A stretch of 64,000 nt of DNA from Candidatus Moraniibacteriota bacterium (GCA_041583775.1 JBFHFF010000002.1:128274-192273), one strand, 5' to 3'; numbered from the stretch's first letter, positions 15,162-34,132 are shown. Notes: generated by a model not told the origin, from the sequence alone. Numbers and translations: made by a program.

Positions 15162-16331
15162 TTATTTCAATGTTATTGAATAAACGCTTTTCGTTTTTTT
15201 GTCTGTAAAAAAAAGATACTTCTCGTTTTCATCCAAGAATAAATTTACAGCATCCACTGCAACCATTTCGGCGCTCTCTAAAAGTCTTCGTTTTTTGCCA
15301 GACTCTACATCGATTTCCCAAAAAGTGTCTGTTGAGTTATATTTTCCTGAACTCCAGTCATTTGGTAATATTATTTCATTTTTAGCATACACCATCATAG
15401 CACAATAGATTTTTTTATTATCCTTAGCCCAAACACATTTATCAACAGAGGTAGGAAAATTCAAACTCTTCAACTCCCCTCCTTTCGCGTTCATTGAGCT
15501 TAGCATCATCCCGTTGCCTATTTGTTCGTTTACATAAGAAACTAGCAGTCTATTTCCGTTATTAGACCATAAATAATCAGCAGCAAAAACTCCCTTATGC
15601 ACACTTTCCACTTCCTTTGTTTTAATATTTATACAATCTAAACCAGCTTCAAAATTAGCATCTGGATATCTATGATAACAGATTTTGCCACCATTTTTTG
15701 GAATTTCAAAATCAATTTTTTCATATTGCAAATCATTTAGAACAATTTCTTCATTTTCTCCATTAAGATCTGCTATCGCAATTTTTCTACCAGTCTCATT
15801 TTCAAATGATTTATAAACAATTTTATCTTCCACTTCATTTTTATACCAAACTACATATTCAATTTTCTCGTCCAACTCACTTATCGTATTTTTATTTAAA
15901 TCATAAACAAAATACTTATTCTTGTCTTTTATCAACGCCTTATCCCTATTAAAATTCCATTGAATAGCTGAAACATCAATAAAAGGATACCCCCCAATAG
16001 AGTTCCTTGATTGTCCTTTGAAATCAATTAATAAAAAATTTCTATTTTGATAATATAATACTTGTGATGTAGTTAAATTCAAAACAGCACCCTTTACTGA
16101 TCCCTCTTCACCTGCTATTAATTTGTAAATTTTTCCATTTTCAGTTTCCTTTTCTTCCTCTATCTCACTCTCTTCTAATTCTTGGTTTTCTGTTTCCACA
16201 GAAAGCTCTGGTGCATTTTCTTTTTTGTTGTCAGTAAAAAATTTTTCATTTGAAGATATACTATGCAAAACAAAAGCTAGGGATGTTATGAGAAAAATAA
16301 TTGCAATAGCTATAAAAAAATTTTTTGACAT
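15162..16331 (-). CDS. Membrane-anchored extracytoplasmic protein, possibly beta-propeller/TolB-like
   Basis: N-terminal TM (FFIAIAIIFLITSLAFVL), an acidic linker, and repeated WxxDxxxxY-type strands. It is the last gene of the minus-strand operon. Confidence 0.45.
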   Translation of the reverse strand: MSKNFFIAIAIIFLITSLAFVLHSISSNEKFFTDNKKENAPELSVETENQELEESEIEEEKETENGKIYKLIAGEEGSVKGAVLNLTTSQVLYYQNRNFLLIDFKGQSRNSIGGYPFIDVSAIQWNFNRDKALIKDKNKYFVYDLNKNTISELDEKIEYVVWYKNEVEDKIVYKSFENETGRKIAIADLNGENEEIVLNDLQYEKIDFEIPKNGGKICYHRYPDANFEAGLDCINIKTKEVESVHKGVFAADYLWSNNGNRLLVSYVNEQIGNGMMLSSMNAKGGELKSLNFPTSVDKCVWAKDNKKIYCAMMVYAKNEIILPNDWSSGKYNSTDTFWEIDVESGKKRRLLESAEMVAVDAVNLFLDENEKYLFFTDKKTKSVYSITLK

Positions 16332-16371
16332 ACTTTTTTGAGCGTTGTTTATTTTTTTAAAATAAACTTAA

Positions 16372-16800
16372 TTAATTACATCCCGCAGGATCAAGACATG
16401 ACCTAACTGATGGTATCGTTGTCATGACATCCCTTGTTAAATCTGGGTTAATAATGTTTAAAATCAACCAAGCCGTAAGTGCTATTCCCAGTCCAAAAAT
16501 AGCACTATATATTGTTTCTTTCGCGTCACTCATTGTAGATGCATTCCCAGCAGAAAATACAGTGTATTTAAAAGCACCAAATCCTATCATAAAAATTGCT
16601 AGTAAAGCAGAAATGCCTACACCAAAAGTATACAATGAATTTAAATAAGATAAGAAATCATTTGATCCTGTAGTCTCACCTGGTACAATTTCTCGTGTTG
16701 TATAGCTACCAGCAAAAACATTGTTTGTTACAAAAATACCATAAAAACTAATCATTGCTAAGATTCGAAATTTTTTTAATTTCATATTTTTTATTATCAT
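16372..16800 (-). CDS. VirB2/TrbC-like pilin candidate (signal peptide plus two hydrophobic helices)
   Basis: 142 aa. Signal peptide ends ...NNVFA, then two TM segments (LYTFGVGISALLAIFMIGFGAF and IYSAIFGLGIALTAWLILNII), the architecture of T4SS pilins. Lies in the same operon as VirB4 and VirB6-like genes. Confidence 0.45.
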   Translation of the reverse strand: MIIKNMKLKKFRILAMISFYGIFVTNNVFAGSYTTREIVPGETTGSNDFLSYLNSLYTFGVGISALLAIFMIGFGAFKYTVFSAGNASTMSDAKETIYSAIFGLGIALTAWLILNIINPDLTRDVMTTIPSVRSCLDPAGCN

Positions 16801-19637
16801 AGCTCTTTATTTAATTTAACAGCATAAGACAAACCAAACATTACACTCCAAACCAAAACCATTGCAATCGCCAACCGAATTATAAACAGCAAATAATGAG
16901 GGGCGTTGCTAATTGAAGAAGCGAGATATTGCTTAAGTGTAACATCCTGAGCTAAAGCCATATTAAAACCAACTTTCACTGAAATAGCAGTGTCTCTTGC
17001 TAATGTATTAGAATCAATAACACCCCAAGTGTCTTTTAGCATCTCAACATATTCATTCGCACCTCCCGAAGAAAAACTTTTCACGAGTCTAGCCTTAAGG
17101 TCTATTCCCGTTCCAATTGTCATATCTGCTGGAATTGTAAATGTAATTTGATCACCATTAAGAACTGTATTTAATCTCATAGTGTTGTTTCCTGTAACAA
17201 GAAAGTCATCGTCAACTTCTATATTATTTATATACCAAACCAAATCAACTTCATCATCATCTTGAACGGCATCAGTATTAATACTCATATACCTTGGAAC
17301 CACAGTTGCTCTGAAGCTAACAGTTGTGCCATTATCTGCTTCATATACAGTATCAGAAAGTGTTCCATCAAATCTTGTTGTGGCAACAGCATTGCCGTCA
17401 ACACTTTCAACCACAGCTCTAGGACCTGCAACTGTTAGAATTCTTTGAGAAACAAAATCTGCCGAACCCTCTGTTGCATTACTTCTTTTACTAGAAACAG
17501 AAATCGACATTATTGAATCTTCTCCAGCAGTAACAGGGAAAAACATTTCTTCTTCTGGGGCGGTTCCACAACCAACACCTCCAAAAATTCTACAATTCAC
17601 AACTGCGCCAATGCTATTGTCGTTTATTTTCCAGTTATACCTATCGAATGCTGGGGTTCCATCTGCAGTAACAGTTTCTGCAATCAAAACTTCATATGGA
17701 TATACTGGACAAATATCTTCATATAAACCAGTATCACAAATTGCTGGCCCCCTTCTCCATGTCCCACTAGCAGTGTCTCTTATTGCTTTATATAAATTCA
17801 TCCCCACAACATTTCTAATAACTGGAAAATAGATTCTTTCAACTGCACCCACAGTTCTACCATCCACATCAAGTGATGTTCCTCCAGCTAAAGATTCGTG
17901 CTCACTAACTATTACAGTTGCCCTTAGCCATACCTTGTTGTCAGTAGCGGCCAATGCTGGTAAACCAGAGAGTGCTCCAAAAATTGCACTTGTAGGAAAA
18001 AATTTCAATTCCCTAACACCCATCCCCTCAGTAAAACTTTCATATATTAAACTTGCATTGGGAACAATATGCTCACAATCGCTAAAATCATTACCATTAC
18101 AACGATCAATTTGCCATTGATAAAACAAATAATCTTCATTAACACCTTCATTGCTCAAACTAGCATTTATCTGAATAAGGTCAGATCTTTTATTTTCTAC
18201 ATTCATTTCCACAGCATCAAATTGAGGGTTTTCTGGTATAACGCTCAGTTCTGGATCAAGAATAGTTCCCCCTGACTCGTTCACAGGAATAGTTCCAAAA
18301 TAATTAAAACCCCAATCACTATTACCTGGCTCACACTTATCATCGCTCAATGGAGCTCCTGTAGAAAGTTGTAGTCTCATACTATTGTCATGAGTTGAAC
18401 AAATAGCTGGTGTTGCCCACATTATTTTATAATAAGCATTTAACTCCCCACTATCATCAGTTACTCCAGCGCCATATACTTCAATAATACTATTATCACA
18501 AGAATCATAGTTTGCCATACCATCATTAAATAAAGACATATCAGTGGAAATGGTGCTATCTCCTAGATTAAGATTGTCTGGTAAAAATGTTGAACAAAAA
18601 GCCGAAGCTTCACCGCTAGTAGCAAAAGTTTGTACGACTCCTGTAATGGGATTAGTAACATTATAACCAGTAAGTGTCGAAGTTTCTGTTTCTCCACCTT
18701 CAGAAATTGGAATCATTGAAGTTCCTTCGATAACAACACCAACTCTGTCTCCAGGTCTATAAATCCAAGTAAATTGGGTTTGATTTAAGCCAGCTAAATC
18801 GGCTTCATCCTCAACTCCATCTCCATCCGTATCAGCATTTGTTGGGTCCGTGCCCCAGCATTCCTCTTCTGCAACACCAAAATCACCATCTCCAACACGC
18901 CCAACTCCACAATTTCCAAATTCATGACTACATCTTACAATTTCATCTCTCCCAGCTCTTGCATCCTCTTCTGAATCCCCCATATTATCACTAGAAACTT
19001 GTTTTCCAAAATTATGATCATAACATCTCGTTATAGCACTATATCTTACTATTTGTTTGTCAGCATCGAACATTACTGCTGGATCATCATCATAAAAACC
19101 AACTCCGTTTCCTGTTTTAGCACCAACTCCATCAAGACCACCATAACTAGCATCAAAACCATCTTCATCTTCTAATGCGGCTGGTATAGCTGCATAATTT
19201 ATACCAAAAAGGTCTGCGTCAAAATTTCCTCTTGCTAAAATTCCCATCGCCTCTCGCTTTCCTGCTTCAATAGTGTTTAAGGCTCTCCCTTCATCATCCG
19301 AATGAACAATATACCAGGTATAATATAAATTAGATGTATCAGTTTTAAAACCTTTTGGAGCTGAGAGCGCTGTCACTTTTTCCCCCTCTTTTGGATTCGT
19401 TTTATTGAAACTAATCTCAACAGTTGGTACCATTTCTTTTTTTACCGATCTCCTTAAAGCATCTTTATCAAAACCATATCTATCCTCCATACATTCCGCC
19501 ATTCTCTCAAGGTTAACGGTTGCTCCTTTTGTAGCACTAACTTGACATTGAGCCTGAGCAAACACATAGTCTGTTTTTAATAAAAACAGTACCAGTGCTA
19601 AAAAGCAAATTCTTGCTATTTTTTTGTATTTTTTCAT
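16797..19637 (-). CDS. Large secreted, membrane-anchored surface protein (946 aa) with a thrombospondin type 3-like Ca-binding repeat, a Cys-rich region and a C-terminal TM anchor
   Basis: Signal peptide (LALVLFLLKTDYVFAQA), DTDGDGVEDEAD motif, many Cys and Gly/Asp-rich stretches, and a C-terminal hydrophobic helix (LLFIIRLAIAMVLVWSVMFGLSY). Confidence 0.7.
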   Translation of the reverse strand: MKKYKKIARICFLALVLFLLKTDYVFAQAQCQVSATKGATVNLERMAECMEDRYGFDKDALRRSVKKEMVPTVEISFNKTNPKEGEKVTALSAPKGFKTDTSNLYYTWYIVHSDDEGRALNTIEAGKREAMGILARGNFDADLFGINYAAIPAALEDEDGFDASYGGLDGVGAKTGNGVGFYDDDPAVMFDADKQIVRYSAITRCYDHNFGKQVSSDNMGDSEEDARAGRDEIVRCSHEFGNCGVGRVGDGDFGVAEEECWGTDPTNADTDGDGVEDEADLAGLNQTQFTWIYRPGDRVGVVIEGTSMIPISEGGETETSTLTGYNVTNPITGVVQTFATSGEASAFCSTFLPDNLNLGDSTISTDMSLFNDGMANYDSCDNSIIEVYGAGVTDDSGELNAYYKIMWATPAICSTHDNSMRLQLSTGAPLSDDKCEPGNSDWGFNYFGTIPVNESGGTILDPELSVIPENPQFDAVEMNVENKRSDLIQINASLSNEGVNEDYLFYQWQIDRCNGNDFSDCEHIVPNASLIYESFTEGMGVRELKFFPTSAIFGALSGLPALAATDNKVWLRATVIVSEHESLAGGTSLDVDGRTVGAVERIYFPVIRNVVGMNLYKAIRDTASGTWRRGPAICDTGLYEDICPVYPYEVLIAETVTADGTPAFDRYNWKINDNSIGAVVNCRIFGGVGCGTAPEEEMFFPVTAGEDSIMSISVSSKRSNATEGSADFVSQRILTVAGPRAVVESVDGNAVATTRFDGTLSDTVYEADNGTTVSFRATVVPRYMSINTDAVQDDDEVDLVWYINNIEVDDDFLVTGNNTMRLNTVLNGDQITFTIPADMTIGTGIDLKARLVKSFSSGGANEYVEMLKDTWGVIDSNTLARDTAISVKVGFNMALAQDVTLKQYLASSISNAPHYLLFIIRLAIAMVLVWSVMFGLSYAVKLNKEL

Positions 19638-19658
19638 AGTTTGTTTTTGTTTAGAACC

Positions 19659-20339
19659 CTAAGAAGTAAATTGTGAATAAAAATAAATATCTAATATTAA
19701 TAAATATATCCAATGGAATGCTGTTGAGACAAAAATAGATTTATTTTTATAAGCAATAAATCCAAATAAAATGTTGGGCATTAATATCAAAAGCATACTT
19801 TTTCCTGAAATCATTCCTGTAGTACCCAATTCATAAACTAAAAAAAGGAAGGCTTGGGTAATAATAGCATAAAAAATACTCATAACTGAAGTTAGTCCTT
19901 TCATTACAAATCCTCTGAAAAAAAACTCTTTTGCAAAAACCACAAAGGGAAGAATGAAAAGATCAACAAATAGCATTATTTTAACATCTTTTGCTATTAC
20001 CCAAGAAGAAACTCTTATATTTTCTTGCCAATTTAATTTTAGCACAAAAAGTACTATTACTGCAAAAAAAATAATTGTTATTCCTAACGAAGTCATTAAA
20101 TTTTTAAAATTTAAATTATTTTGTAAAAAATATTCCTTAGGATTTTCTTTGAAAATATTTTTAATAATAAAAAAAGGTGCTATAAACAGCAAAAATACTG
20201 TTGTAATCATCCATTCAAAAAATCCACCAGCCCTAACATCTTCAAGAAAAAAATTAGTCAAAAAAATAACCAAAATAAGATTCACCAAAATCACAAAGAT
20301 TATGTTTTTTTTATTTTTTATTTTTTGATTTTTTAACAT
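19659..20339 (-). CDS. CPBP-family (CAAX/Abi) intramembrane glutamic endopeptidase
   Basis: Polytopic membrane protein carrying motif 1 (EFFFRGF) and an FxxxH motif (AFHWIYL) of the CPBP family. Confidence 0.65.
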   Translation of the reverse strand: MLKNQKIKNKKNIIFVILVNLILVIFLTNFFLEDVRAGGFFEWMITTVFLLFIAPFFIIKNIFKENPKEYFLQNNLNFKNLMTSLGITIIFFAVIVLFVLKLNWQENIRVSSWVIAKDVKIMLFVDLFILPFVVFAKEFFFRGFVMKGLTSVMSIFYAIITQAFLFLVYELGTTGMISGKSMLLILMPNILFGFIAYKNKSIFVSTAFHWIYLLILDIYFYSQFTS

Positions 20340-20351
20340 TTTTTATTTTTA

Positions 20352-21011
20352 TTATTGTGCAGTTTTCGCTAACATTTCGAGCTCTCTGTACTTTTTTTTC
20401 GCTTTTTTTATTCTTTTTTTCAGAACATGATTTGCGTGCATAACACAAACAATATTTAACGGCAAAGCGCCAACAATTGGAATTATTTCTAAAAATAACA
20501 ACAAGGCTCTAAGTGTTTTAACTTTCCAGTTCCCATATCCCCAAAGCATTATAAAAAGCAATGGAGAAAAAATAAAGCTAAATATAAAAGCTGCTATTGG
20601 AATTATATCCATAAAATCAAGAAAGAATGCTAGTAAATAAGCTATTTGAATCGCAGAACTATCGCCTTCCATCATTCTTGCTCTTAATTTATTTCCTAAT
20701 CTTATAACTCTAGCTGGGAGCATTGCCTTTGGGCCTGTAGCTGCTTTGTATATTCCTCTTGCGGCCATTAATTTAGTACCTTCTTTTCTTTTTGCTGTTT
20801 GGTTATATTGTCCTGCATTTCCCTCTAATGGTCTATTTGTCTTGTAGTTTTCCAGCCTTGCTTGTTGAAGATTGTTATAATGACCAACCTCTTTTTCTTT
20901 GTCAATCCGTGAAGATTTTACATACTGAAAAGAAGATTCTTTGGGAGAATTTTTTTTAATTCCATTTAATATTTGCCTTACTCTTTTTTCATTTTCCCCA
21001 GACATACCCAA
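20352..21011 (-). CDS. Hypothetical protein with a basic N-terminal region and C-terminal 2-3 TM helices; T4SS-associated, unknown function
   Basis: ORF with a C-terminal hydrophobic block (IQIAYLLAFFLDFMDIIPIAAFIFSFIFSPLLFIMLW...). Located just downstream of virB4. Confidence 0.5.
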   Translation of the reverse strand: MGMSGENEKRVRQILNGIKKNSPKESSFQYVKSSRIDKEKEVGHYNNLQQARLENYKTNRPLEGNAGQYNQTAKRKEGTKLMAARGIYKAATGPKAMLPARVIRLGNKLRARMMEGDSSAIQIAYLLAFFLDFMDIIPIAAFIFSFIFSPLLFIMLWGYGNWKVKTLRALLLFLEIIPIVGALPLNIVCVMHANHVLKKRIKKAKKKYRELEMLAKTAQ

Positions 21012-21043
21012 TATAATTATAAATTACAAACACCTTTTTAAAA

Positions 21044-22912
21044 TTATGCTTCGTTTTCTTCTTCTTTTTCTTTCTCAAGTTCAATTCGTTGTGCGGGATT
21101 TGTAGTAATTAGTTTATCTTCGTCATATGACGCCACTACTTGGATAGCAGCTCTTTTTAAACCAGCAAAGAAAATTCCCTCCCCAACTCCGCAATCCATT
21201 AAAAGATATTTTTCTCTATCAGTTAGATAAAAGGTGTCAGCAATGACATCAATAGCTGATTGTGATTGTTTCATTAACACTTGGATAGAGGAGTTTGAGA
21301 CAATAGGTTTCCCATATTTAGATGACATAAAATCAGAAATGTCCTGCGTAATAGTAGTTAATCCTCCATAATATTTTCTAATTCTTTTTGCGACCATAAA
21401 TAAAAATCTTGCAGCTTCTTCATGCTCCATCATTCTCCAAGCCTCATCAACAACAATTAATCTTTTTTTAACATTAATTCTAACTTCTTTCCAAATATAG
21501 TTTAAAATCATATACATCGCCATTGGACGCAATTCATCTTCTAGGTCTCTAATATTAAAAACTACCAATTGATTATCGAGAGAAATATTTGTTCTGTTAT
21601 TCAAAAAACCTGAAAAAATTCCTTTTGTATATTTCTCTAATCTAATAGTAATATCCTCCACACCTTTCATATTTGACAACACTTCATATAAATCAAGCAG
21701 TACTGGCATAGCTCTATCTTTCAAATCGTCCAATGGAGTGTCTTCTGTTATATCTCTAACTGCATATGTTTCTCTAATTGCTTGTTCTAGAATTGATTCT
21801 TCTTCTGGCGTTAAAGTCCCTAACATCAATTTTAAAAGCCCTAACATTGATGATATTGTGCTTCTTATAATATCTTCTACTTCAACACCCTCCTCTATTG
21901 ATAAATCAAAGGGGTTAATGTGATTTTTTGTGTTTAAAGAAATTCTCAAATAAGAGCCTCCTACTGTTTCTGCTAGATATTTATATTCATCTTCTGGATC
22001 AATAATAATAGCACTTGCGCCCATCATTAAAGATCTTAAAATTTCCAATTTAACAGTATAACTTTTTCCAGCACCTGATTTAGCAAAGACCACCATATTC
22101 GCATTTTCCATAGAAAAACGATCGAATAATATAAGGGAATTGTTGTGCCTGTTAATTCCGTATAAAATTCCTTGGTTAGAGGTTACATCCGCAGAAACAA
22201 AAGGGAAGGTTGTTGAAAGTGGTGATGTGTTTAGTGCATTACCATTAATCAATCTGTCAATTCCAAGAGGAATTGTAGAAACAAAACCTTCTTTCATTCT
22301 AAAAATAGATCTTTTTGTATATACTGACCGAGCATTCAGCAGAGATTCTAACATAATTGTGTTTTTGTCTAGAGCATCCTTGGTCTCTCCAAATACATTA
22401 AAATAAAGCCCGAACTTAAAAAAACGCTCTGCACCTTCCTGGAGTTGATCTCTTAAGGTTTCAACATTACTGTATGCCATTTCTAAAATTGGATCTCTTG
22501 TTAAACCCTTTTCTGATTCAATATTCATCTCTGATTGAATTTGTGTGACTTTTTTTCTTAGTTTTTTTAAAATAGTTCCAGTATCAACAGGATAAATAAA
22601 CATTGATATATCCAGTGGAAGATCAATTCCAATTATTGGATTCATCCAGCCCATTGCAAGTGCTCTTGGATATGCAGCAACAAAAAGAGTTCTGCAAAAA
22701 GTATCTCCTATCTGCAAATTTGAACTAGAGACTCCAAAAGCAGATGGTGAAATTAAATCTATAACCCTAGCCAATCCCTCTTGATAAAGCCTTTCTTTAT
22801 TTAATAAATCAGAAGAAGCTTCTTCGTGAATTTCTGGTTGCTTCAAAGTAGTGGTCTTCCCAGAAATTGTTTTATTTTCTTTTATTCTTCCGAATTTAGG
22901 TAGTTCTATCAT
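21044..22912 (-). CDS. virB4: VirB4/TrbE/CagE-family type IV secretion ATPase
   Basis: Walker A (VVFAKSGAGKSYTVK), Walker B (RLIVVDEAWRMM), and the conserved N-terminal VirB4 region (ILYGINRHNN..., FDRFSMENANMVV). Confidence 0.85.
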   Translation of the reverse strand: MIELPKFGRIKENKTISGKTTTLKQPEIHEEASSDLLNKERLYQEGLARVIDLISPSAFGVSSSNLQIGDTFCRTLFVAAYPRALAMGWMNPIIGIDLPLDISMFIYPVDTGTILKKLRKKVTQIQSEMNIESEKGLTRDPILEMAYSNVETLRDQLQEGAERFFKFGLYFNVFGETKDALDKNTIMLESLLNARSVYTKRSIFRMKEGFVSTIPLGIDRLINGNALNTSPLSTTFPFVSADVTSNQGILYGINRHNNSLILFDRFSMENANMVVFAKSGAGKSYTVKLEILRSLMMGASAIIIDPEDEYKYLAETVGGSYLRISLNTKNHINPFDLSIEEGVEVEDIIRSTISSMLGLLKLMLGTLTPEEESILEQAIRETYAVRDITEDTPLDDLKDRAMPVLLDLYEVLSNMKGVEDITIRLEKYTKGIFSGFLNNRTNISLDNQLVVFNIRDLEDELRPMAMYMILNYIWKEVRINVKKRLIVVDEAWRMMEHEEAARFLFMVAKRIRKYYGGLTTITQDISDFMSSKYGKPIVSNSSIQVLMKQSQSAIDVIADTFYLTDREKYLLMDCGVGEGIFFAGLKRAAIQVVASYDEDKLITTNPAQRIELEKEKEEENEA

Positions 22913-22921
22913 ATTTTTAAA

Positions 22922-23608
22922 TTATTCTCTTTCAAGGTTTAAATCTTCTAGTGTTGGTATTGCTACATGTTCAAACTCTGAAGGGTTATAGCAGTTATAA
23001 TACATTTCTATCAACTCTTGTGTGTTTAATGGCACAATTCTAATCCCACTACCGGAGAGTGATTCTTTAACTTCTTCAACTCTTTGAAAAAGTTGATTTT
23101 TATATGTTTCAAATTGCTCTCTTTCTTGATAAATATTTTTTCGAGGTGTTAGTTTTGCCAACATTTTATCAAGAAATCCTGTTTTTTTAGATTCTACAGC
23201 GTAAAAAGGAACTACTATATAGAACAATTTTGACATAATGTTAGAAACATTAACTAATTCTCCAATAAAGTTTAGATAATCTTCTATCTGATTTCTAAGC
23301 AAAGCATTTCTTTCTGTGTCTTTTTTTCTTTCAAGCATCTCTAAATATGGTTTGATATCAAATTTTCTAGTAGAAATAACTATTTGTATTGGAAAATCTA
23401 ATGAATTTAAAAACCTTTGGTATGCAAAAATAATAGCCTCCTGTTCTGTGCTAGATTTTAAATCAAAATTTATTGAAGAAACAGCTAAAACCGCTCTTAA
23501 GGAGCCATCTTTAACAACAACTGTCCCGTCTTTAATTTCGGAAACATTTAATTCTTCTTGCATACTAGAACCCACCATTCCTGCCATAAAACTAAAATTA
23601 ATAATCAA
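22922..23608 (-). CDS. Hypothetical T4SS-associated protein (228 aa)
   Basis: ORF translationally coupled to the PrgI-like gene upstream and virB4 downstream. No recognisable motif. Confidence 0.5.
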   Translation of the reverse strand: MIINFSFMAGMVGSSMQEELNVSEIKDGTVVVKDGSLRAVLAVSSINFDLKSSTEQEAIIFAYQRFLNSLDFPIQIVISTRKFDIKPYLEMLERKKDTERNALLRNQIEDYLNFIGELVNVSNIMSKLFYIVVPFYAVESKKTGFLDKMLAKLTPRKNIYQEREQFETYKNQLFQRVEEVKESLSGSGIRIVPLNTQELIEMYYNCYNPSEFEHVAIPTLEDLNLERE

Positions 23609-24018
23609 ATTTTACTATTCTTGTCTAATAAATCAGCTAAGTTACTTGAGTTTTTCAATTCCTTTTCTTTAACAAATCTATTAATTGAAGCTTTTTCATC
23701 CTCCTTTATTCTCTTTACTGGCTCTCTCGTTTCATTTCTTATATTTCTATGCCAAGTTAAAACCTTCGGTTTAAATAAATAAGAAATCCCATTTAAAACA
23801 AATTGGAGAAAGGTCATTCCCGCTGGTTTATAAAAAGCAAAAGCCAAGGACAAAAGTACAACTGGTGCACCTATTAGCACTAAAGCCGCTATTGAATCTG
23901 TTTGCCACAAAAAAAACAGTCCTGTGGCTCCTAGGGCCAACCAACCCAATTGTTTTATTGTTAGTTGAAAAGCTAACTTGTCTTCAACTTCGATATATTG
24001 TGGAACATTGAAATTCAT
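23605..24018 (-). CDS. PrgI/VirB3-like small membrane protein
   Basis: 137 aa with two adjacent TM helices after a short N-terminus (LGWLALGATGLFFLWQ... LVLIGAPVVLLSLAFAFY), in the usual position immediately upstream of the VirB4 region. Matches the PrgI family of Gram-positive conjugation systems. Confidence 0.55.
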   Translation of the reverse strand: MNFNVPQYIEVEDKLAFQLTIKQLGWLALGATGLFFLWQTDSIAALVLIGAPVVLLSLAFAFYKPAGMTFLQFVLNGISYLFKPKVLTWHRNIRNETREPVKRIKEDEKASINRFVKEKELKNSSNLADLLDKNSKI

Positions 24019-24030
24019 ATTTGCTTTTTA

Positions 24031-25020
24031 TTAAACATCCTTCAAGTTTATAAGGTGTTTTGATTGTATTTCACCCTCCTCTTCAGTGGTTTTTTGTTTT
24101 TCACTTTCCGTCTCTTTTAGTTTCCCCATCTCTTCTGTTTTTTCATCATAAACTTTCTTCTCTTGATCTTCTGTTGATGGAATTTCTTTTTCTTGCACTT
24201 CCCTAATTTCTCTCTCTATAAACTCTTCCGTTTCTTGTTGCTTTTTATTTTCCAAAGATTCTTTTAATTTCTCTGAAATTTCACCCGCTGTGTTATTGAA
24301 TAAAATTATTTTTCTATTGGCATCAATTTCAAGGTCACTATTCTCATCATAAGACTCCAAAATCATTAAAAGAGCTTTTTTTTCTAAAAAGGTTAGGTTG
24401 CTTACATTTTTTGAGTTAAAAATATAATCACTTCTCTCTAGATTGTTGTGTGCTTGAGAGCCTTTTTGTATAGTGTAATCATCTAGCCAATTCTCTATTG
24501 ATTGCTTTCTTGGTTCTATTTCTTCTGAAATTTTTATCTTGCTCTCCCCTAATAATTGCTTCCCTATTTCTGGAAATTTTTTTAGTGCTGAAATTAAAGG
24601 CATTCTTTCTATTTCAATATCCAAACCACTGTTTTCTATGTCGCTGATTTTTTTCCGAAGACTAAAAAGTTCAACAATGAGCTTTTCTGCTTCATTTTCA
24701 TCAATTCTTATTCTCTCGACAATTCTTTTTTTAATCTTTTCCTCATTAAAGACTCCTTCAACAAAAGAATCTCTAATAATTCTAGAAATTTCACCAACTT
24801 CAGAAATTTTATAAATATTAAACTTCTTTGCAATTCTGATAATATTCTCTTCTGTTTTTTCAACAACAAGTCCTAATCTAATTTGATAAGGCAATTTATT
24901 ATAAATTTCCAACCAACCTAAATCATCATTTTGTGTATCATCTTTTGGATCCCAATGAACACTAGCACTCATTGGACAAGCCTGCTTCCTTATTAATCTT
25001 TCGTTTTCTATTTCTTGCAT
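24031..25020 (-). CDS. Hypothetical acidic coiled-coil protein (329 aa), T4SS-associated
   Basis: ORF with an E/K-rich C-terminal half. No recognisable motif. Confidence 0.45.
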   Translation of the reverse strand: MQEIENERLIRKQACPMSASVHWDPKDDTQNDDLGWLEIYNKLPYQIRLGLVVEKTEENIIRIAKKFNIYKISEVGEISRIIRDSFVEGVFNEEKIKKRIVERIRIDENEAEKLIVELFSLRKKISDIENSGLDIEIERMPLISALKKFPEIGKQLLGESKIKISEEIEPRKQSIENWLDDYTIQKGSQAHNNLERSDYIFNSKNVSNLTFLEKKALLMILESYDENSDLEIDANRKIILFNNTAGEISEKLKESLENKKQQETEEFIEREIREVQEKEIPSTEDQEKKVYDEKTEEMGKLKETESEKQKTTEEEGEIQSKHLINLKDV

Positions 25021-25034
25021 TTTTATTTTTTATT

Positions 25035-27065
25035 TTATTCATTCATTCCTTTCATTGCTTTTCTTGCCTCATTATCTCCCAAATCTTCTTTGGTTATACC
25101 TGAAATAATTTCTTTTAATGCTTCTTGTTTCAACCCATCTGTTTTTTCAGCTGCATGCTTTCGAAGTTGTTCTTGACTAAATCTATCATCACCACTTGCT
25201 TGTTTTTCTTTTATATAAGTTTTAACATTATCATTTTTTAAGAAATCTACAGATTGATCGGTTATATCACTCAATTTCATTTTCCCTAAATTATCACTAT
25301 ATGTTTTTTCAATATATTCCTTTCTTGCTTTTTCTCTAAATCTATCCTCAGATTCTTTACTCATTGAAACTCCACCCAGTTTGGTATTTTCGTCTATAAC
25401 TTTTTTATCCAGTTCTTTGCTCATATTTCTGCTAATTTCATGTTCAATCATTTCTCCTCTATTTTTCTTTCTGGCGAGCTTTTCAAATTTATCCAAAGCC
25501 TCTGGGCTGTTTTTAAACAACTCATAAGCTCTAGCATAGCTATCGTCATCCTTTGTCATGCCTAATTTCCCATCTTCTGCTAACTTCATTGCTGCTGCTT
25601 TTTTTCTAGCAATTAATTGTGCTGTGGTGTTTGAACCCTTCCCACCAGCTAAATTTGCAAGAGAGTTTAAGGTGGTTGGATTTGCTTTTAACATTTTCTT
25701 TAAAGCATCTTCATTAGGAATACCATTTTCATCCCAGTTTTTTGTTTGTTCTTGTTGTAATTTCTGTTGGTGAGCAAGTTTAGCAGACTTACTTCCAATT
25801 TGGGCTCTCTTGGAAAGCATTCTGGCTTCGTTGTTTTCTTTGTACCAAGTTTTTGTGTTATCAACAGCAGCTTTACCATATCCCAAACCATATCCCAAAG
25901 TTCCTGCATAGACAGCTCCTTTAGCTAATTTACCTGCCTTTCCCAATCCCCAAGCAGCACCATCACCTGCTTGACTTGCGATTTTTTTAGAAAGATCAAA
26001 ACCATAAAATAACATATAAATACAAGCACTGAATGGGACTAATATTCTAAGAGCGCCTATGACTAAGTTTTCTGATTGAGTTCCTGCCATCTGAACTCCA
26101 CCCCCACTAGCTGTAACATTAATACTAACAGCACTAACCAAAACAAGTGCTAGCCAAAGAAAAAATAACATTACCGGACCAAAAGCACACCAATATGTCA
26201 ATTTACTGAACCAGGTGGTTTTTATACTTCCAATGGCCGTTCCTGGGAGTGCTAATGCAAAAAAAGCTAAAGGGGAAAGGATTATTAAAACCCAAAGAGC
26301 TATAAGTCTAAGAATAAGAGACATTCCAAGAGCTAATAGCATAATTCCCATAATAAATTTAAAAATTGCCTCAATTATCATGCTAATATATAGTGCTACA
26401 TTGGAGCCACCTGTTTCACTTTTAAAAGAGGCTCCCATTCCCACTGAATTTAGAAGCGCGGCTGAATAACTAGCTGATCCTTCTTTTATATTGCTTAGAA
26501 AAAATGACATTGCTAAGTTTGAAATATCAATAAAAAAAAGTGTAATTGGTTTTGAAAAATTGACAAACAAAGCAGCTGAAACAACATAGATAATAAATTT
26601 TTTGTCTGAATATTTATTAATTCTCAAAATGGTAGCGATTGCTACAAAAATCAAAATTAAGATGAAAAATATATTCACAAAATCCCTCACTAATCCCCAG
26701 CCAGTGTTAATTGCTGTGAGCGCATTGCCAGAGAAAAAAACTTCTTCATATAACTGATCTGTCATTGTCATATCAACAACACTCATCCCCACACCCAAGA
26801 TGAAACCACTAAATGCTTGCAATAATTGCAAGCATCCCACAATCATATTGTCCATTATTTTAGAGGGCGTAGGAAGACCAAGAAAACCGCCATTTTTCCC
26901 GTCTATTTCTCCAGCATCTGCCAAATCTGCGGCCCCTGTATCACCAATCATTCGCCAGCCCTCTGCTGCATTTGTTTGATTTATATTTATAATAAAAAAG
27001 GAAAAAATTATTACTATTGGCAATATCGCTTTGAGCCATTTTTTTTTGTTTTTGAAAGATATCAT
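25035..27065 (-). CDS. VirB6/TrbL-like polytopic inner-membrane channel protein with a long hydrophilic C-terminal tail
   Basis: Signal peptide, an extracytoplasmic segment, then 6-8 TM helices and a ~250-aa charged C-terminal domain. Size and topology match TrbL/VirB6. Confidence 0.55.
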   Translation of the reverse strand: MISFKNKKKWLKAILPIVIIFSFFIININQTNAAEGWRMIGDTGAADLADAGEIDGKNGGFLGLPTPSKIMDNMIVGCLQLLQAFSGFILGVGMSVVDMTMTDQLYEEVFFSGNALTAINTGWGLVRDFVNIFFILILIFVAIATILRINKYSDKKFIIYVVSAALFVNFSKPITLFFIDISNLAMSFFLSNIKEGSASYSAALLNSVGMGASFKSETGGSNVALYISMIIEAIFKFIMGIMLLALGMSLILRLIALWVLIILSPLAFFALALPGTAIGSIKTTWFSKLTYWCAFGPVMLFFLWLALVLVSAVSINVTASGGGVQMAGTQSENLVIGALRILVPFSACIYMLFYGFDLSKKIASQAGDGAAWGLGKAGKLAKGAVYAGTLGYGLGYGKAAVDNTKTWYKENNEARMLSKRAQIGSKSAKLAHQQKLQQEQTKNWDENGIPNEDALKKMLKANPTTLNSLANLAGGKGSNTTAQLIARKKAAAMKLAEDGKLGMTKDDDSYARAYELFKNSPEALDKFEKLARKKNRGEMIEHEISRNMSKELDKKVIDENTKLGGVSMSKESEDRFREKARKEYIEKTYSDNLGKMKLSDITDQSVDFLKNDNVKTYIKEKQASGDDRFSQEQLRKHAAEKTDGLKQEALKEIISGITKEDLGDNEARKAMKGMNE

Positions 27066-27076
27066 TTTTTTGCTGT

Positions 27077-27988
27077 TTAAATTGTAAGACCTTTTTTAAT
27101 TCTATCTTGAAGAACATTTATACCGTCTGTTCCAATAGTTCTTTCTATTCTTCGAACTTCATTATTGATTGGTTTTGCCACAACATTGATTCCACTTTTA
27201 ACAAAAGATGTGACCGAAGAAACCACAAAACTTGCAATGACTTCTTCCAATGAACCAGCATTATTAATCATCTCAATTGGCATTGTTTCAGCAGCAGCGA
27301 CAATTTCTTGGGAAATTTTTCCTGGGATAACTTTATTTCCTTCCGTGATAGTGTTAAACCCACCACCCGCAATGGCTTCTGCTTCTTGGGCTTGAGCTTT
27401 TTGCATTGCCTCATTATCTATAACTTCCATGGCATTAACATAAGCATTTGTTGAGTTATTATAGTCCCCAAATTGATAAGAAAGAAAAGCTCCTACGCCT
27501 CCTCCCCTTGTTTGATCAAAAACATCACCAATTGGATCATCTGAATCAACTAATTCATGTAATGTTGCTTCTGGTTGCCCAGGAGAAAGTTGACTACTAA
27601 TTGTTTGTTCAACATTTCTTAACATATCCCTTTCTGAAGTAGAAACACCTTCTTGTATAACTGAAAAGAAATCTTCTAATTTGTTCTCAGCAGCTACTTG
27701 TGCTGCTCCAAAAATAAAATCTTCATAACTAGAAATAACCATAGATTCTCCAGATGAACCTGAGACAGCCTTTTCAATACTTTCTTTAATCATATTATTC
27801 GCCTCTTTTTTAAGAGTCTGAAGAACTGTCTTTCTGGTAATCTCAAAAACCTGTTGCATTGCTTGTTGCATAAGACCAGATGCAATATTTGTTCCCCACA
27901 TTTCAGCACAAACTGTTGTTGGCATGATTGTAACAAAAAGAAAGGCCGCTATAGTTATCGTTGCTGTTATTTTTTTTATTTTTATCAT
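27077..27988 (-). CDS. Secreted hypothetical protein (303 aa); possible VirB5-like minor pilus or adhesin subunit
   Basis: Signal peptide (ITIAAFLFVTIMPTTVCAEMW) and an Ala/Gln/Glu-rich, mostly helical composition. Confidence 0.4.
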   Translation of the reverse strand: MIKIKKITATITIAAFLFVTIMPTTVCAEMWGTNIASGLMQQAMQQVFEITRKTVLQTLKKEANNMIKESIEKAVSGSSGESMVISSYEDFIFGAAQVAAENKLEDFFSVIQEGVSTSERDMLRNVEQTISSQLSPGQPEATLHELVDSDDPIGDVFDQTRGGGVGAFLSYQFGDYNNSTNAYVNAMEVIDNEAMQKAQAQEAEAIAGGGFNTITEGNKVIPGKISQEIVAAAETMPIEMINNAGSLEEVIASFVVSSVTSFVKSGINVVAKPINNEVRRIERTIGTDGINVLQDRIKKGLTI

Positions 27989-28046
27989 TTTTGCTCCGTA
28001 TAAATATTATACCTTATATCTGAAATTTTTAATTTAAAATTGATTC

Positions 28047-29177
28047 TTATAAACCATACATTGAAGATGTGTTCATTAGTTGATCCACATCAACAGAGTT
28101 TGTTATTTCTGAAATATCAAAAGAATCAATGTCAAATTGATCTAAAATTTCTGTTGTATCAGAACTTAAGACATCCATTTCAGACATAACTGCTTGCACT
28201 TTTCCAAGCATAGATACTAGTGCAACAGGATCATCTTTATCCGTTGCCAATGTTTCATCCTGACCAAGCATATATTTTTGCAAGGATAATCCCATTTTAT
28301 GGACATCTTTTAATACATATGGTACTTCCAGTGCTTTGATTTTTTCATACATAGTTTCTGATTTTCCTTTAAGATCAGTAACTTTTGAAGAGTCACCTTC
28401 TTCAATATCAATACCTATCCCGCCTATTAAACTAGTTGCCATTCCAATTATATTATCACTGTCTTGAAACAGATATGGAGCTTCTTCAAACATTATATAT
28501 CCCACTGCAACAAAATATTCTTCAACAGCAGCTTTTTCTTCTTCAAGGGTTTGATCATTTTTTTCAGTCACCTCCTCTTGAATATTCAACTCTTCATCTG
28601 AAATTATTTCCAACTCTTCATCTAAATTAACTTCTTGAATTGTTTTTTCAACGATGGCTTGCACCTCCTCCTCTGTTAAGGAATATTTTGTGGCATCTTC
28701 TGATGCTGCCACTGTTTTTAAAATTTCATCATCAATAGATGCTTGGTTGAGTAATTTTAATTCTTCTTCTTTATCTTCTTTTATGTTTTTCAAAAAAACT
28801 TCTGTTGCATTTATTTTTTGTGTATCAATTTTATCAAGAGGGTTATTGGTGATTTCTCCTTCTGTTTTTTTAGTAGTCGTGTTTATGTTTGACCCATCTA
28901 TTGAATTTATTTGTGTCTCTATTTTTTTTACCAACGGATCAAACCCTCCTTCAACCTCAACTCCATCAGAATATCCATCCTCATCTGTGTCTGCTTTGTT
29001 AGGGTCTGTTCCTAAGGCTAACTCCTCTTGATTTGTTAAGCCATCACCATCTAAATCCTCAAAATAGTTGGGTTCGTTTTCATCAGCTGATGAAAATTGA
29101 ATCCAAGCAAAAGCGAGGATAGCAAAAAACATAGCCCCTTTTTTAATTGGTGATTTAAAATTGTTATTTTTATTCAT
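28047..29177 (-). CDS. Secreted acidic protein with thrombospondin type 3 Ca-binding repeats
   Basis: Signal peptide, DLDGDGLTNQEELALGTDPNKADTDEDGYSDGVEVEGGFDP, and a very acidic C-terminal half. Confidence 0.6.
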   Translation of the reverse strand: MNKNNNFKSPIKKGAMFFAILAFAWIQFSSADENEPNYFEDLDGDGLTNQEELALGTDPNKADTDEDGYSDGVEVEGGFDPLVKKIETQINSIDGSNINTTTKKTEGEITNNPLDKIDTQKINATEVFLKNIKEDKEEELKLLNQASIDDEILKTVAASEDATKYSLTEEEVQAIVEKTIQEVNLDEELEIISDEELNIQEEVTEKNDQTLEEEKAAVEEYFVAVGYIMFEEAPYLFQDSDNIIGMATSLIGGIGIDIEEGDSSKVTDLKGKSETMYEKIKALEVPYVLKDVHKMGLSLQKYMLGQDETLATDKDDPVALVSMLGKVQAVMSEMDVLSSDTTEILDQFDIDSFDISEITNSVDVDQLMNTSSMYGL

Positions 29178-29280
29178 TTATTTTTATTTTTGATGATTGA
29201 TAAAAAATTCTACACCAAAACATATTTATATTTCTTTTAAACTTGTTTTGATTATAACACATTTTTGTTTTATGCAAAAT

Positions 29281-30912
29281 TTAAAAAAATATTATTGATA
29301 AAAGAAGTATCCCATAAATAAAAATAATTGATAAAACCCACCAATTTAGGTTTTTTATTTTTATTTTTTTGTTATTTAAAATCCAATAATTAATCGCTCC
29401 AAAAAATATTGCAACAGGCCAAAGGTTTTTTTCATTTAAAACTATTATTGACATTAAATAGCTAATAAAAATTGTCGCTCCAAAGAAAAACCGTGCATTT
29501 TCCTCACCTAAAAGGGTTGGTATTGTTGTAACACTATTCTTTTTATCTCCTTCAATATCCTTAAGATCTTTCATTGGGATTAAAAGTGTATAAACAACAA
29601 ATAGAAATAAAGCTATCTTCCATGGGAAATTTTCCAAGGATTGCCCATTTGAAATTACAATAAAACCCATAAATAAAAACAAAAGTGATGCTGCAGAGGA
29701 AACAATGCTTGAAATAATTACAAACCTCTTTAATCTCATTGGTTTACAAGAATAGATCCAGGTTATTAATAAATAGACACACATTATTAAAAAAAACTTG
29801 GGTCCAACAATAATCGATGTTAAAAGAGACATTCCCATTGGAATAAGTGCTATATCTAAATATTCATTTTCTGAAAAAATTTTCTTAATTAGCGGTCTTT
29901 CTTTGTTTGTAATTTCATCTATTTTTTTATCCTCAATATCATTTATAAAAACAGAATAAAACCAGGCACAAAAAATTGAAATTAATAAATTAATCACCAC
30001 TAAAAAACTAAAAATATCAAAAGATATATTTTTTTTAAAATAAAAATAACCCATCATTAGCCCAATAACAAACAAACCGCTATTAAAAAACATTTGTGGA
30101 TATCTAACATTCTTCAATAGTGCAAAAAATTTCTCTTTACTTAAAATAAATTGTAAAAAAATTAAATTTATAAACAACACAACAGTATAAAAAAGTGATG
30201 CTCTAAAGTGAAGCGCTATCTTCATTGGTTTTTTATCAAAATCAAAAATTTCCATTGATGTTAAAAAGGTTGTTGCAACATCACTGCTTTTAATTTTTAA
30301 AATATTTTCTCCTGATAAACCTTCTATTAAAAATGTTAATAAACTGGGGAAAACAGCAAAAATATACAATATTGTGTATATAATTAAAGTTACAAAAACT
30401 CCTTTCATCCAACTTCTTTTTTTAATTCCTACATAAAATCCAAGCCCCACCATTGCTAAAAAAATTCCCGTCCTAGTTCCATATGTAATACCAAAAGAAG
30501 GATTATTACCAAAAAAAAGAAAAAATCTTTCCAAAACACCTAATGCGCTATCAAAAATATAAAAACTCCAAAAATCTTTTTCTCTAAAAATTAACTTATC
30601 GATAATTGGTGGCAACACCATCACCCACTGTCCCCATAATAAAAAAGTTGCTAATTTTGATATTTTTTCTTTAGTAAAAATAACCAAAAAAGTTAAAGTT
30701 GCAACATACACCATTAAAAAAAATAAAAAAGTTCCGTGCAATAAAGAACCTGTTAAAAAAGAAAAATTATATGTTTGTAAACCAAACAACATACTTTCAA
30801 TGAGATATCTAATTCCCACAATTGTCACAAAAGAAATTAAAATAGTTTTTATTGAAACAGGTCCCTCTTCTAAAAATGCAACACCTTTTTCAAATATTTT
30901 TATAATTTTCAT
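29281..30912 (-). CDS. Polytopic membrane protein with a C-terminal UbiA-family prenyltransferase domain (fusion)
   Basis: The C-terminal half has both Asp-rich UbiA motifs (INDIEDKKID and KDLKDIEGDKK). The N-terminal ~300 aa is a separate multi-TM domain with no match I recognise. Confidence 0.6.
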   Translation of the reverse strand: MKIIKIFEKGVAFLEEGPVSIKTILISFVTIVGIRYLIESMLFGLQTYNFSFLTGSLLHGTFLFFLMVYVATLTFLVIFTKEKISKLATFLLWGQWVMVLPPIIDKLIFREKDFWSFYIFDSALGVLERFFLFFGNNPSFGITYGTRTGIFLAMVGLGFYVGIKKRSWMKGVFVTLIIYTILYIFAVFPSLLTFLIEGLSGENILKIKSSDVATTFLTSMEIFDFDKKPMKIALHFRASLFYTVVLFINLIFLQFILSKEKFFALLKNVRYPQMFFNSGLFVIGLMMGYFYFKKNISFDIFSFLVVINLLISIFCAWFYSVFINDIEDKKIDEITNKERPLIKKIFSENEYLDIALIPMGMSLLTSIIVGPKFFLIMCVYLLITWIYSCKPMRLKRFVIISSIVSSAASLLFLFMGFIVISNGQSLENFPWKIALFLFVVYTLLIPMKDLKDIEGDKKNSVTTIPTLLGEENARFFFGATIFISYLMSIIVLNEKNLWPVAIFFGAINYWILNNKKIKIKNLNWWVLSIIFIYGILLLSIIFF

Positions 30913-31196
30913 TTATTTGTTTTAATAAATTTCACTATATTTTGTTTGATTTTTTTATTAATTTCAGTTGTCATTTTATTTCTCAATAACACAACCTCAC
31001 TCCTCCATGTTGATTTTGAAACTGATAAAAAAAGGATTCCGCCTTTCCAGTCACTAACTTTAATATTTTTTCTCCCTATATCACCAAACATATCTTGAAT
31101 AACCAAATCTGTTGTTTGTCTTAATATGTGTATATCAAAAGATAATTCAGAGCTGTTTTTTACTCTTTTTTTTAATAAAGTCTCAAAACTCTTCAT
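30909..31196 (-). CDS. DUF721/DciA-like small protein (putative replicative helicase loader/operator)
   Basis: 95 aa sitting immediately after dnaN in the conserved dnaA-dnaN-(recF)-DUF721 context. The C-terminal pattern LFLSVSKSTWRSEVVLLRNKMTTEINKKI resembles the DUF721 core. Confidence 0.5.
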   Translation of the reverse strand: MKSFETLLKKRVKNSSELSFDIHILRQTTDLVIQDMFGDIGRKNIKVSDWKGGILFLSVSKSTWRSEVVLLRNKMTTEINKKIKQNIVKFIKTNK

Positions 31197-31214
31197 TTTT
31201 TATTTTTCCAATCC

Positions 31215-34113: not shown

Positions 34114-34132
34114 GCTTAAAAATGTGGATAAA
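34114..34132. promoter_or_regulatory. Perfect consensus DnaA box (TGTGGATAA) plus an adjacent degenerate box, upstream of dnaA
   Basis: TGTGGATAA at 34114..34122 is the reverse complement of TTATCCACA; TGTGGAAAA follows at 34124..34132. Both lie 70-90 nt upstream of the dnaA start codon. Confidence 0.6.

Follow-up and report, generated by a model that had tools for sequence, protein, structure and literature searches.

Predicted chromosomal type IV secretion operon with conserved partner genes next to the replication origin of a Moranbacteria-like member of the Paceibacteria

Introduction

What kind of machine is encoded by a gene cluster that joins parts of a type IV secretion system (T4SS) to a series of unassigned partner genes, and does it serve conjugation, the uptake of DNA or contact with a host cell? 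The question is raised by a 64,000-nucleotide stretch of DNA from a Candidatus Moraniibacteriota bacterium (GCA_041583775.1, JBFHFF010000002.1:128274-192273; hereafter the window, from whose first letter all positions are counted), in which 13 consecutive open reading frames (ORFs) of the same direction occupy positions 15162..30912 of the minus strand. A preliminary description, made from the sequence alone, had interpreted these genes as one operon for a minimal, non-conjugative, chromosomal apparatus of monoderm type that is related to the T4SS of Saccharibacteria and carries lineage-specific accessory genes. The ORF list of the window contains all 13 tightly packed genes where this description had placed them.

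The T4SS of Southlakia epibionticum is essential for epibiotic growth, as are its pilins; it resembles Gram-positive conjugation systems, and its gene cluster is devoid of a recognizable coupling protein or relaxase (Wang et al. 2023, PMC10633639). A survey across the Patescibacteria with Moranbacteria genomes in its dataset (Quinonero-Coronel et al. 2025, PMC12102498) describes a FATA-related VirB4 clade with TrsD as the commonest partner, PrgI/VirB3, VirB6 and VirB2-like pilins encoded near virB4, and VirB8 and VirB1 as very rare. According to the same survey, relaxases are rare, genes for type IV coupling proteins (T4CPs) are mostly located far from virB4, and the T4SS genes of Paceibacteria lie close to dnaA and dnaN. 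A review repeats this picture and speculates on a pilus that acts as a conduit (2025, PMC12857230), and a preprint on a cultured Microgenomatia strain reports tubes, perhaps T4SS pili, that extend into the host and also describes how host RNA is taken up (2026, 10.64898/2026.06.21.733656). The type of system has been published before, as have its association with dnaA and the absence of a relaxase (PMC10633639, PMC12102498, PMC12857230). Here, we describe the components, the neighbourhood and the relatives of the locus in the window and conclude with high confidence that it is a chromosomal, origin-proximal Patescibacteria T4SS of a Moran-like lineage of the Paceibacteria, which is derived from monoderm MPF-FATA conjugation machinery and most likely mediates contact or exchange with a host.

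Results

Pfam families were searched in window ORFs of at least 110 amino acids (aa), comprising the minus-strand operon genes and their neighbours, and in the 95-aa dciA product, leaving aside short overlapping ORFs of the opposite strand. Relatives were collected by a VirB4 scan of one genome per GTDB species, which yielded 80 loci, all from metagenome-assembled genomes of Patescibacteria, some of them under automatic names of doubtful value; their gene content was determined by tblastn and by iterative profile searches over all ORFs, and single loci are referred to by L-numbers (such as L008, L017 or L077). Coordinates and primary evidence for the features are given in Table 1.

The candidate VirB4 ATPase reaches 353 bits with the NCBIfam model conju_CD1110 (cut-off 325), covering model positions 179-728 of 752, as well as 110 bits with the Pfam TraG P-loop family and 23.1 bits with CagE_TrbE_VirB (cut-off 21). 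Both Walker motifs are intact (A, AKSGAGKS; B, LIVVDE). We regard the protein as a genuine T4SS ATPase, of the CD1110 type of Gram-positive systems, and the caveat of the preliminary description that it might be an ATPase of FtsK/HerA type only does not apply. It is 50-94% identical to the VirB4 proteins of the 80 Patescibacteria genomes versus at most 35% to those of plasmids, which points indirectly to a place in the Patescibacteria clade of VirB4. Family scores above cut-off also support the earlier assignments of the PrgI/VirB3-like protein and the pilin. The neighbouring gene product, listed before among five proteins without homologues, matches NCBIfam TrsD with E=1.4e-9 and 38 bits, under the 200-bit cut-off. 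Its alignments fall on the N-terminus of three VirB4 models (positions 11-101 in the CD1110 model, 6-167 in TIGR00929), and a precomputed Pfam TraC-like match exists for the public gene call. Because this protein aligns to the N-terminus of VirB4 models, the VirB4 of the window is devoid of that part, and both parts lie within a single ORF in L077 (~800-3200) and L079 (~3100-5500) while being split in most loci, the TrsD-like protein is best read as the separately encoded N-terminal part of VirB4. Such one-ORF fusions are not mentioned in the available portion of the 2025 survey (PMC12102498).

The PrgI/VirB3-like gene is located two genes upstream of virB4. The pilin, the only one in the window, has a signal peptide, two hydrophobic helices and conserved IPG and INPDL motifs, and scores 24 bits, under the cut-off, with the Mbov_0395-type pilin model of NCBIfam. 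In the case of the VirB6/TrbL-like protein, the topology described before was found again, namely seven hydrophobic segments followed by a charged C-terminal tail of ~290 aa; its link to the family, however, runs through homologues. The protein itself has no direct Pfam match, five of 40 orthologues match Pfam TrbL (best 3.8e-8), and the family profile aligns weakly (E=0.04) with TrwI/VirB6 of R388 (7o3v_F), so that we accept it as probably VirB6-like on this transitive evidence. No operon protein had a VirB8-like (NTF2-like) or VirB1-like match in Pfam, NCBIfam or PDB-profile searches.

The pilins of some relatives are longer than that of the window. A 395-aa ORF with a pilin-homologous N-terminal part (tblastn, alignment) is present in L008 (16019-17206) and L009 (13318-14505), and the C-terminal extension of the L009 ORF, which alone was scanned, matches Pfam SLT weakly (E=6.8e-4, 19.6 bits, below the 21.3 cut-off); these ORFs may combine a pilin with a VirB1-like function. 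In other relatives, the pilin hairpin is followed by Cys-rich extensions of 100-900 residues.

The gene order around virB4 is widely conserved. The closest VirB4 relative (94% identity) is encoded on a Candidatus Moraniibacteriota contig, which places the organism in a Moranbacteria-like lineage of the class Paceibacteria. About nine to ten Moran-like loci keep, downstream of dnaA-dnaN-dciA-UbiA, the full order of 12 genes, i.e., TSP3 protein, all-helical secreted protein, VirB6, acidic cytoplasmic protein, PrgI, TrsD, VirB4, small membrane protein, CPBP-like protein, 946-aa protein, pilin and propeller. Nearly invariant is the block formed by the acidic cytoplasmic protein, PrgI, TrsD and VirB4, which occur in 64, 70, 74 and 80 of the 80 loci, respectively. 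Depending on the search, PrgI lies directly upstream of TrsD in 60-70 loci, TrsD was recovered in 74-76, VirB6 upstream in 52-58 and the pilin downstream in 52-57. The order is thus kept across dozens of Paceibacteria species, as the preliminary description had proposed to check, and the conservation of 12 genes together makes its term 'minimal' doubtful. In many other Paceibacteria, dnaA and dnaN are found downstream of virB4, so that proximity to the origin is retained in a different arrangement of the genes. The occurrence of the cluster in the same kind of site in 80 species-level genomes, with VirB4 identities from 94% down to 50%, indicates vertical inheritance.

Outside the Patescibacteria, the best VirB4 relatives among 72,556 plasmids belong to Bacillota and Actinomycetota (29-35% identity). 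The top match is situated on the megaplasmid NZ_CP062975.1 of Pontibacillus sp. ALD_SL1, in a cluster at 351.8-361.4 kb (L081) that encodes, in this order, two pilin-like proteins, proteins of 779, 116 and 274 aa, a VirB4 of 621 aa and a large peptidoglycan endopeptidase. Patescibacteria profiles detected in it the pilin (1e-18 to 1e-20), VirB6 (1.6e-17), PrgI (6e-15), TrsD (1.2e-49) and VirB4 (8.6e-164), hence the same pilin-VirB6-PrgI-TrsD-VirB4 core as in the window. In contrast to the window locus, however, the endopeptidase gene follows virB4, and the profile search gave no homologues of the acidic cytoplasmic protein, the all-helical secreted protein, the small membrane protein, the 946-aa protein, the propeller and the TSP3 protein. 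The Mbov_0395/0397 families of a Mycoplasma integrated conjugative element (ICE) are grouped with the Pontibacillus cluster as close relatives. Given that the five-part core, pilin included, is present in one Bacillota cluster, this single case suggests that the pilin was part of the ancestral module and need not have been co-opted within the Patescibacteria; the survey left its origin open and did not rule out co-option from another T4SS class (PMC12102498). The Pontibacillus replicon is typed as non-mobilizable, and its cluster, a Gram-positive T4SS with pilins, adjoins flagellar genes.

Two further groups of known systems are close to the window locus. MPF-FATA systems of the pGO1/pIP501 type (TrsC/TraC, TrsD/TraD, TrsE/TraE) show the same order of VirB3-like, TrsD-like and VirB4 genes, encode the N-terminal part of VirB4 separately (we take TraD of pIP501 to be its counterpart) and share the monoderm design without VirB7, VirB9 and VirB10. 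They differ from the window locus, which has a VirB2-like pilin, is chromosomal and vertically inherited, and near which no relaxase, T4CP, VirB1-like hydrolase or VirB8-like protein was found; pGO1 (TrsD) is named as an MPF-FATA subclass in the survey (PMC12102498). The T4SS of Southlakia (SEML1_0006-0019) and other Patescibacteria resembles the window locus in its chromosomal, origin-proximal position, the FATA-related VirB4, the presence of TrsD, PrgI/VirB3, a probable VirB6 and a VirB2-like pilin, and the absence of a relaxase or coupling protein in the cluster and of outer-membrane core components. While Southlakia belongs to the Saccharimonadia and possesses an array of six divergent pilins, the window locus, from a Moran-like lineage of the Paceibacteria, has a single pilin, no peptidase or lysozyme gene after virB4, and partners unlike those of Southlakia, namely the TolB-like propeller, the anchored 946-aa protein, the CPBP-like protein and the TSP3 protein. 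The earlier comparison with a Saccharibacteria-type machine is right as to the kind of system, but the lineage is Moranbacteria-like Paceibacteria.

Table 1. Features of the T4SS locus and of the adjacent replication genes, listed from the 3' end of the cluster.
Feature	Coordinates	Strand	Basis
N-terminally anchored extracellular TolB-like (PD40) beta-propeller (predicted), last operon gene	15162..16331	-	profile versus PDB
VirB2-like T4SS pilin, single copy	16372..16800	-	Pfam T4SS_pilin 35 bits (cut-off 26.6)
946-aa acidic, Cys-rich surface protein	16797..19637	-	N-terminal signal, conserved C-terminal transmembrane anchor
CPBP/Rce1-like intramembrane protein	19659..20339	-	Pfam Rce1-like 38.6 bits
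Small membrane protein, basic variable N-terminus, conserved hydrophobic block	20352..21011	-	hydrophobicity, conservation
VirB4-family ATPase, C-terminal three quarters of canonical VirB4	21044..22912	-	NCBIfam, Pfam, Walker motifs
TrsD/TraD-like protein	22922..23608	-	NCBIfam TrsD and alignment to N-termini of VirB4 models
PrgI/VirB3-like small membrane protein	23605..24018	-	Pfam PrgI 39.6 bits (cut-off 27), TcpE 25 bits
Cytoplasmic acidic protein	24031..25020	-	~95-aa N-terminal helical domain, clade-specific middle domain, disordered tail
VirB6/TrbL-like polytopic membrane protein	25035..27065	-	topology and homologue matches
Secreted or anchored protein, predicted all-helical	27077..27988	-	position, prediction
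Secreted, very acidic TSP3 (Ca-binding) repeat protein	28047..29177	-	Pfam TSP3_bac 54 bits
UbiA-family prenyltransferase with ~300-aa N-terminal membrane extension	29281..30912	-	Pfam UbiA 105 bits, residues 301-513
dciA, dnaN, dnaA (replication genes directly upstream)	30909..34045	-	Pfam DciA, DNA_pol3_beta x3, Bac_DnaA

Genes of the cluster are mostly spaced by 9-58 nt, with a single exception of 103 nt between the UbiA and TSP3 genes. Of the several 4-nt ATGA overlaps noted before, two are start/stop overlaps with an ATG-type start (dciA/UbiA, and 946-aa gene/pilin at 16797..16800), and a third (23605..23608) rests on a TTG start, the public gene call beginning seven codons downstream. 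The 103-nt gap contains a promoter-like TTTGCA-16-TATAAT with TG (29278..29251), which is one of the 13 top-scoring promoter-like matches of the region and the sole one with an extended -10; as promoter and terminator scans across the region stayed at background level overall, we take it as a hint only. The UbiA gene, which the preliminary description had counted to the operon, probably belongs to the dnaN-dciA unit and not to the T4SS, because it overlaps dciA by 4 nt, is set apart by the gap with the promoter-like site and lies on the opposite strand in the relative L017. The T4SS operon proper is likely to comprise the 12 genes at 15162..29177, with the TSP3 gene likely as the first. At its 3' end (15162), it abuts a convergent plus-strand Wzy-like gene ending at 15161. 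A GT2 glycosyltransferase gene and two tandem genes of the Wzy/O-antigen-ligase type (11970..15161; surface polysaccharide) converge on this end. The polytopic N-terminal ~300 residues of the UbiA protein (29281..30180) have no family match, and the fusion is kept in nine related loci.

The surroundings of the operon are those of a chromosome. GC skew switches from negative values (up to ~34 kb) to positive ones (from 36 kb), DnaA-box matches (34123..34142) are present just upstream of dnaA, and genes for tRNA-Ala and tRNA-Arg follow at 36085..36242; the segment 34045..36240 is likely to be the chromosomal replication origin. An ORF of 343 aa with one transmembrane (TM) segment and faint TPR matches (34250..35281) is located between dnaA and the skew switch. 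The other window ORFs with a family match are housekeeping or cell-envelope genes, including RecQ, a ribosome hibernation factor, MurB, glycosyltransferases, TatD, MetRS, O-antigen-ligase-like proteins, the CCA-adding enzyme, MgsA, RecG, UvrC and two UvrA proteins; nine further scanned ORFs have no Pfam match. The UvrA paralogues are both of full length (55515..58391, 958 aa; 60143..62977, 944 aa) and flank a plus-strand uvrC in what is a very small genome. Seven tRNA genes were found in the window, none of them within the operon, and the GC content of the window is 31%. In agreement with the preliminary description, relaxase, VirD4/TcpA, VirB11 and lytic transglycosylase domains were absent from the Pfam-scanned ORFs, and so were integrase domains; the pair of relaxase and T4CP that a conjugation module requires is hence missing among them. 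Together with the CD1110-type VirB4, the replication and housekeeping flanks and the skew switch fit the earlier interpretation as a chromosomal, non-conjugative, monoderm-type T4SS with lineage-specific accessory genes.

Among the partner proteins, the acidic cytoplasmic protein encoded directly upstream of PrgI in 64 of the 80 loci stands out. Its AlphaFold2 model is helical and confident over residues 1-242, with a disordered tail, and the N-terminal domain of ~95 residues is the part common to all 64 loci that carry a homologue. The C-terminus consists of ~80 disordered, charged residues and the motif SKHxINLKD[IV] (24031..24090), which is conserved in the Moran-like clade and could be a docking peptide or a signal. 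With the profile of this protein, 3,889 cluster representatives were retrieved at E<=1e-3 among 1.84 billion, the named members being annotated as 'hypothetical protein' of Paceibacteria or Parcubacteria. No Pfam relative was found, a PDB profile search gave nothing credible, and ten sampled members of the profile matches yielded no informative Pfam match, one showing a weak, unrelated match to COMM_HN. The N-terminal region is a common, unannotated domain that is tied by its position to the ATPase module of the T4SS. An MPF-FATA counterpart was found neither by tblastn among the 72,556 plasmids nor in the Pontibacillus cluster. We consider this domain the most interesting by-product of the analysis.

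The last gene of the operon, placed directly downstream of the pilin gene in 29-33 loci, was likewise listed before as having no homologues. Its family profile (30 sequences) matches TolB propellers of the PDB at E=1.4e-12, with profile positions 80-281 aligned to TolB residues ~136-355, i.e., to the propeller part alone, and the protein has a TM segment at residues 5-23. It is best described as a membrane-anchored PD40-type propeller and not as TolB itself: the beta-propeller is shared with TolB of the Tol-Pal system, but TolB, a periplasmic partner of Pal and TolA with a six-bladed propeller, has an N-terminal alpha/beta domain where this protein has a TM anchor, and here the organism is a monoderm, no Tol-Pal genes were seen in the window and the gene follows a T4SS pilin gene. 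The words TolB, propeller, PD40, UbiA and CPBP are absent from the main text of the survey, as are TolB, PD40, TSP3, UbiA and Rce1 from the examined part of its supplementary tables (PMC12102498).

The remaining three of the five proteins in question are still without a family match. For the all-helical secreted protein, Pfam, NCBIfam and PDB-profile searches were negative, as was tblastn against the 72,556 plasmids; its family comprises only 15 clusters among 5.8 billion proteins, it occupies the same position in 10-12 loci, and it is specific to the Moran-like clade. The AlphaFold2 model from 15 sequences, although helical throughout, is unusable (predicted local distance difference test score of 41). 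The small membrane protein has hydrophobic peaks at residues 126-144, 137-155 (overlapping) and 170-188, corresponding to two or three segments, and by iterative search its homologue lies directly 3' of virB4 in about 20 loci; no Pfam or NCBIfam family and no plasmid sequence (tblastn, same set) matched it.

Two large Ca-binding surface proteins had been proposed. The TSP3 protein indeed carries the repeats, but with 376 aa it is not large; it contains 85 Asp and Glu versus 30 Lys and Arg residues and an N-terminal signal-like segment read from the sequence, and a homologue is encoded upstream of VirB6 in about 19-25 loci. In the 946-aa protein, conserved in 9-10 loci, such repeats are not demonstrable; it has one TSP3-like DTDGDG motif, which cross-matches the TSP3 protein and is not scored by Pfam. 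It contains 17 Cys residues and hydrophobic segments at 7-25 and 916-934; its family has no Pfam match, and a PDB profile search gave nothing credible. The overlap of its stop codon with the pilin start suggests that the synthesis of the two proteins is coupled.

The assignment as a CPBP protease was justified with respect to the Rce1-like domain, not with respect to the catalytic histidines. CPBP/Rce1 enzymes are characterized by the catalytic motifs EExxxR, FxxxH and HxxxN/D. In ten orthologues of the window protein, which is confined to the Moran-like clade (8-9 loci), motif 1 reads xEFFFRG, the His position of motif 2 is a conserved Gln and the His of motif 3 is not conserved. Because the catalytic histidines are not conserved, the protein may be non-catalytic and perhaps act as a scaffold. 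We also considered that the CPBP-like and UbiA proteins form a CAAX-type pair for lipidation and cleavage of the 946-aa protein or the pilin. This idea was rejected as unsupported, since these histidines are missing, the UbiA gene is coupled to dciA and inverted in L017, and neither the 946-aa protein nor the pilin ends in a CAAX-like sequence.

Discussion

Our interpretation of the locus as a chromosomal Patescibacteria T4SS is based on family matches above cut-off for VirB4, PrgI and the pilin, the transitive evidence for VirB6, the split of VirB4, the conserved gene order, the flanking dnaA-dnaN-dciA and housekeeping genes, the absence of linked conjugation genes from the scanned ORFs, the core shared with a Bacillota cluster and the published systems (PMC10633639, PMC12102498). 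Since neither a relaxase nor a coupling protein is linked to it, the machine most likely serves not conjugation but host contact and an exchange of macromolecules, proteins or others. We rank this function first, ahead of import and DNA uptake, and consider conjugation unlikely.

The sequence itself shows the components of a membrane translocon, namely a probably VirB6-like channel protein, the PrgI/VirB3-like protein and a VirB4 split into the TrsD-like and the catalytic protein, with the single VirB2-like pilin alongside; their order is conserved, and the ATPase motifs are intact. On this basis, a possible mechanism can be outlined. TrsD and VirB4, docked to PrgI and VirB6, would hydrolyse ATP to build a pilin tube or pilus across the thin wall of the monoderm cell. 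At the site of host contact, this structure might be decorated or anchored by the TSP3 protein, the 946-aa protein, the all-helical secreted protein and the propeller. The acidic protein encoded upstream of PrgI would work at the cytoplasmic face, perhaps as an adaptor that replaces a linked coupling protein.

An uptake conduit, in which a VirB2 tube pierces the host envelope and host macromolecules such as RNA are drawn in while the split VirB4 and the acidic cytoplasmic protein handle the cargo, appears unlikely to us, even though it has some points in its favour. The locus has a conserved pilin, a component that Gram-positive T4SSs usually lack (PMC12857230), no export-type coupling protein was found linked, and tubes together with host RNA uptake are described for Microgenomatia (10.64898/2026.06.21.733656). 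That preprint, however, concerns an organism of another class and itself leaves the uptake mechanism and the identity of the tubes open (10.64898/2026.06.21.733656), and the window sequence gives no sign of direction or cargo. A more detailed version, according to which the tube is tipped or anchored by the 946-aa protein and the propeller and the acidic protein is the cargo handler in place of a coupling protein, is slightly less likely than import as such. We regard as improbable a competence T4SS like Helicobacter ComB or archaeal Ced, which would take up DNA from the environment or the host and need neither coupling protein nor relaxase. It would agree with the lack of T4CP and relaxase among the scanned ORFs, with weak, sub-threshold matches of VirB4 to CedB (32 bits) and CedD (28 bits), with the RecG, RecQ and Uvr genes in the window and with T4SS loci of the class ABY1 that adjoin comF, recG and radA (PMC12102498). 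Yet the cut-offs of CedB and CedD (700 and 600) are far above these scores while the conjugation-type CD1110 model passes its own, and the repair genes of the window are tens of kb away in other transcription units. Moreover, deletion of comEC in Southlakia ended transformation but not viability, in contrast to the essential T4SS (PMC10633639, PMC12857230), so that the essential role of the T4SS there is not ComEC-based DNA uptake.

Least probable by far is that the locus is the transfer module of an ICE, or its decayed remnant, which is or recently was mobile. Outside the Candidate Phyla Radiation, VirB4 indeed has its closest relatives among plasmid-borne proteins of Bacillota and Actinomycetota and among NCBIfam families of ICE type, and PrgI-TrsD-VirB4 presumably is the core order of plasmids of the pIP501/pGO1 type. 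However, the cluster is inserted at the origin between dnaA-dnaN-dciA and cell-envelope or housekeeping genes, no integrase, relaxase, T4CP or tRNA gene was found within it or at its ends, and there is no obvious step in GC content (0.29-0.35 inside versus 0.26-0.35 elsewhere in the window; no search for direct repeats was made). Given that the same cluster occupies the same kind of site in 80 species-level genomes, we rejected this reading on the basis of genomic context and vertical conservation, and the reservation of the preliminary description that the locus might sit inside an ICE does not apply.

Several points weigh against our preferred interpretation as a chromosomal T4SS for host contact. 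To our knowledge, no experiment on a Paceibacteria T4SS exists, and essentiality has been established in one Saccharimonadia strain only. A coupling protein may be encoded elsewhere, as the window covers 64 kb of the genome. VirD4 homologues are encoded in many Patescibacteria genomes, far from virB4 (PMC12102498). The apparatus as described may be incomplete, as no VirB8- or VirB1-like component was identified, and the shared gene order of the Moran-like loci may in part be a consequence of their close kinship. The suggested roles of the accessory proteins derive only from position, topology and conservation.

The locus does not represent a new kind of system, but a clean example from the Paceibacteria with a defined operon of, in all likelihood, 12 genes. 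Its conserved, unannotated partners, i.e., the protein encoded upstream of PrgI, the propeller after the pilin, the probably inactive CPBP-like protein and the surface protein whose synthesis may be coupled to that of the pilin, offer specific starting points for structural and genetic studies of how Patescibacteria tap their hosts. These bacteria, which live on other cells, account for a large part of bacterial diversity, and no T4SS but theirs is known to be essential for the growth of its owner.

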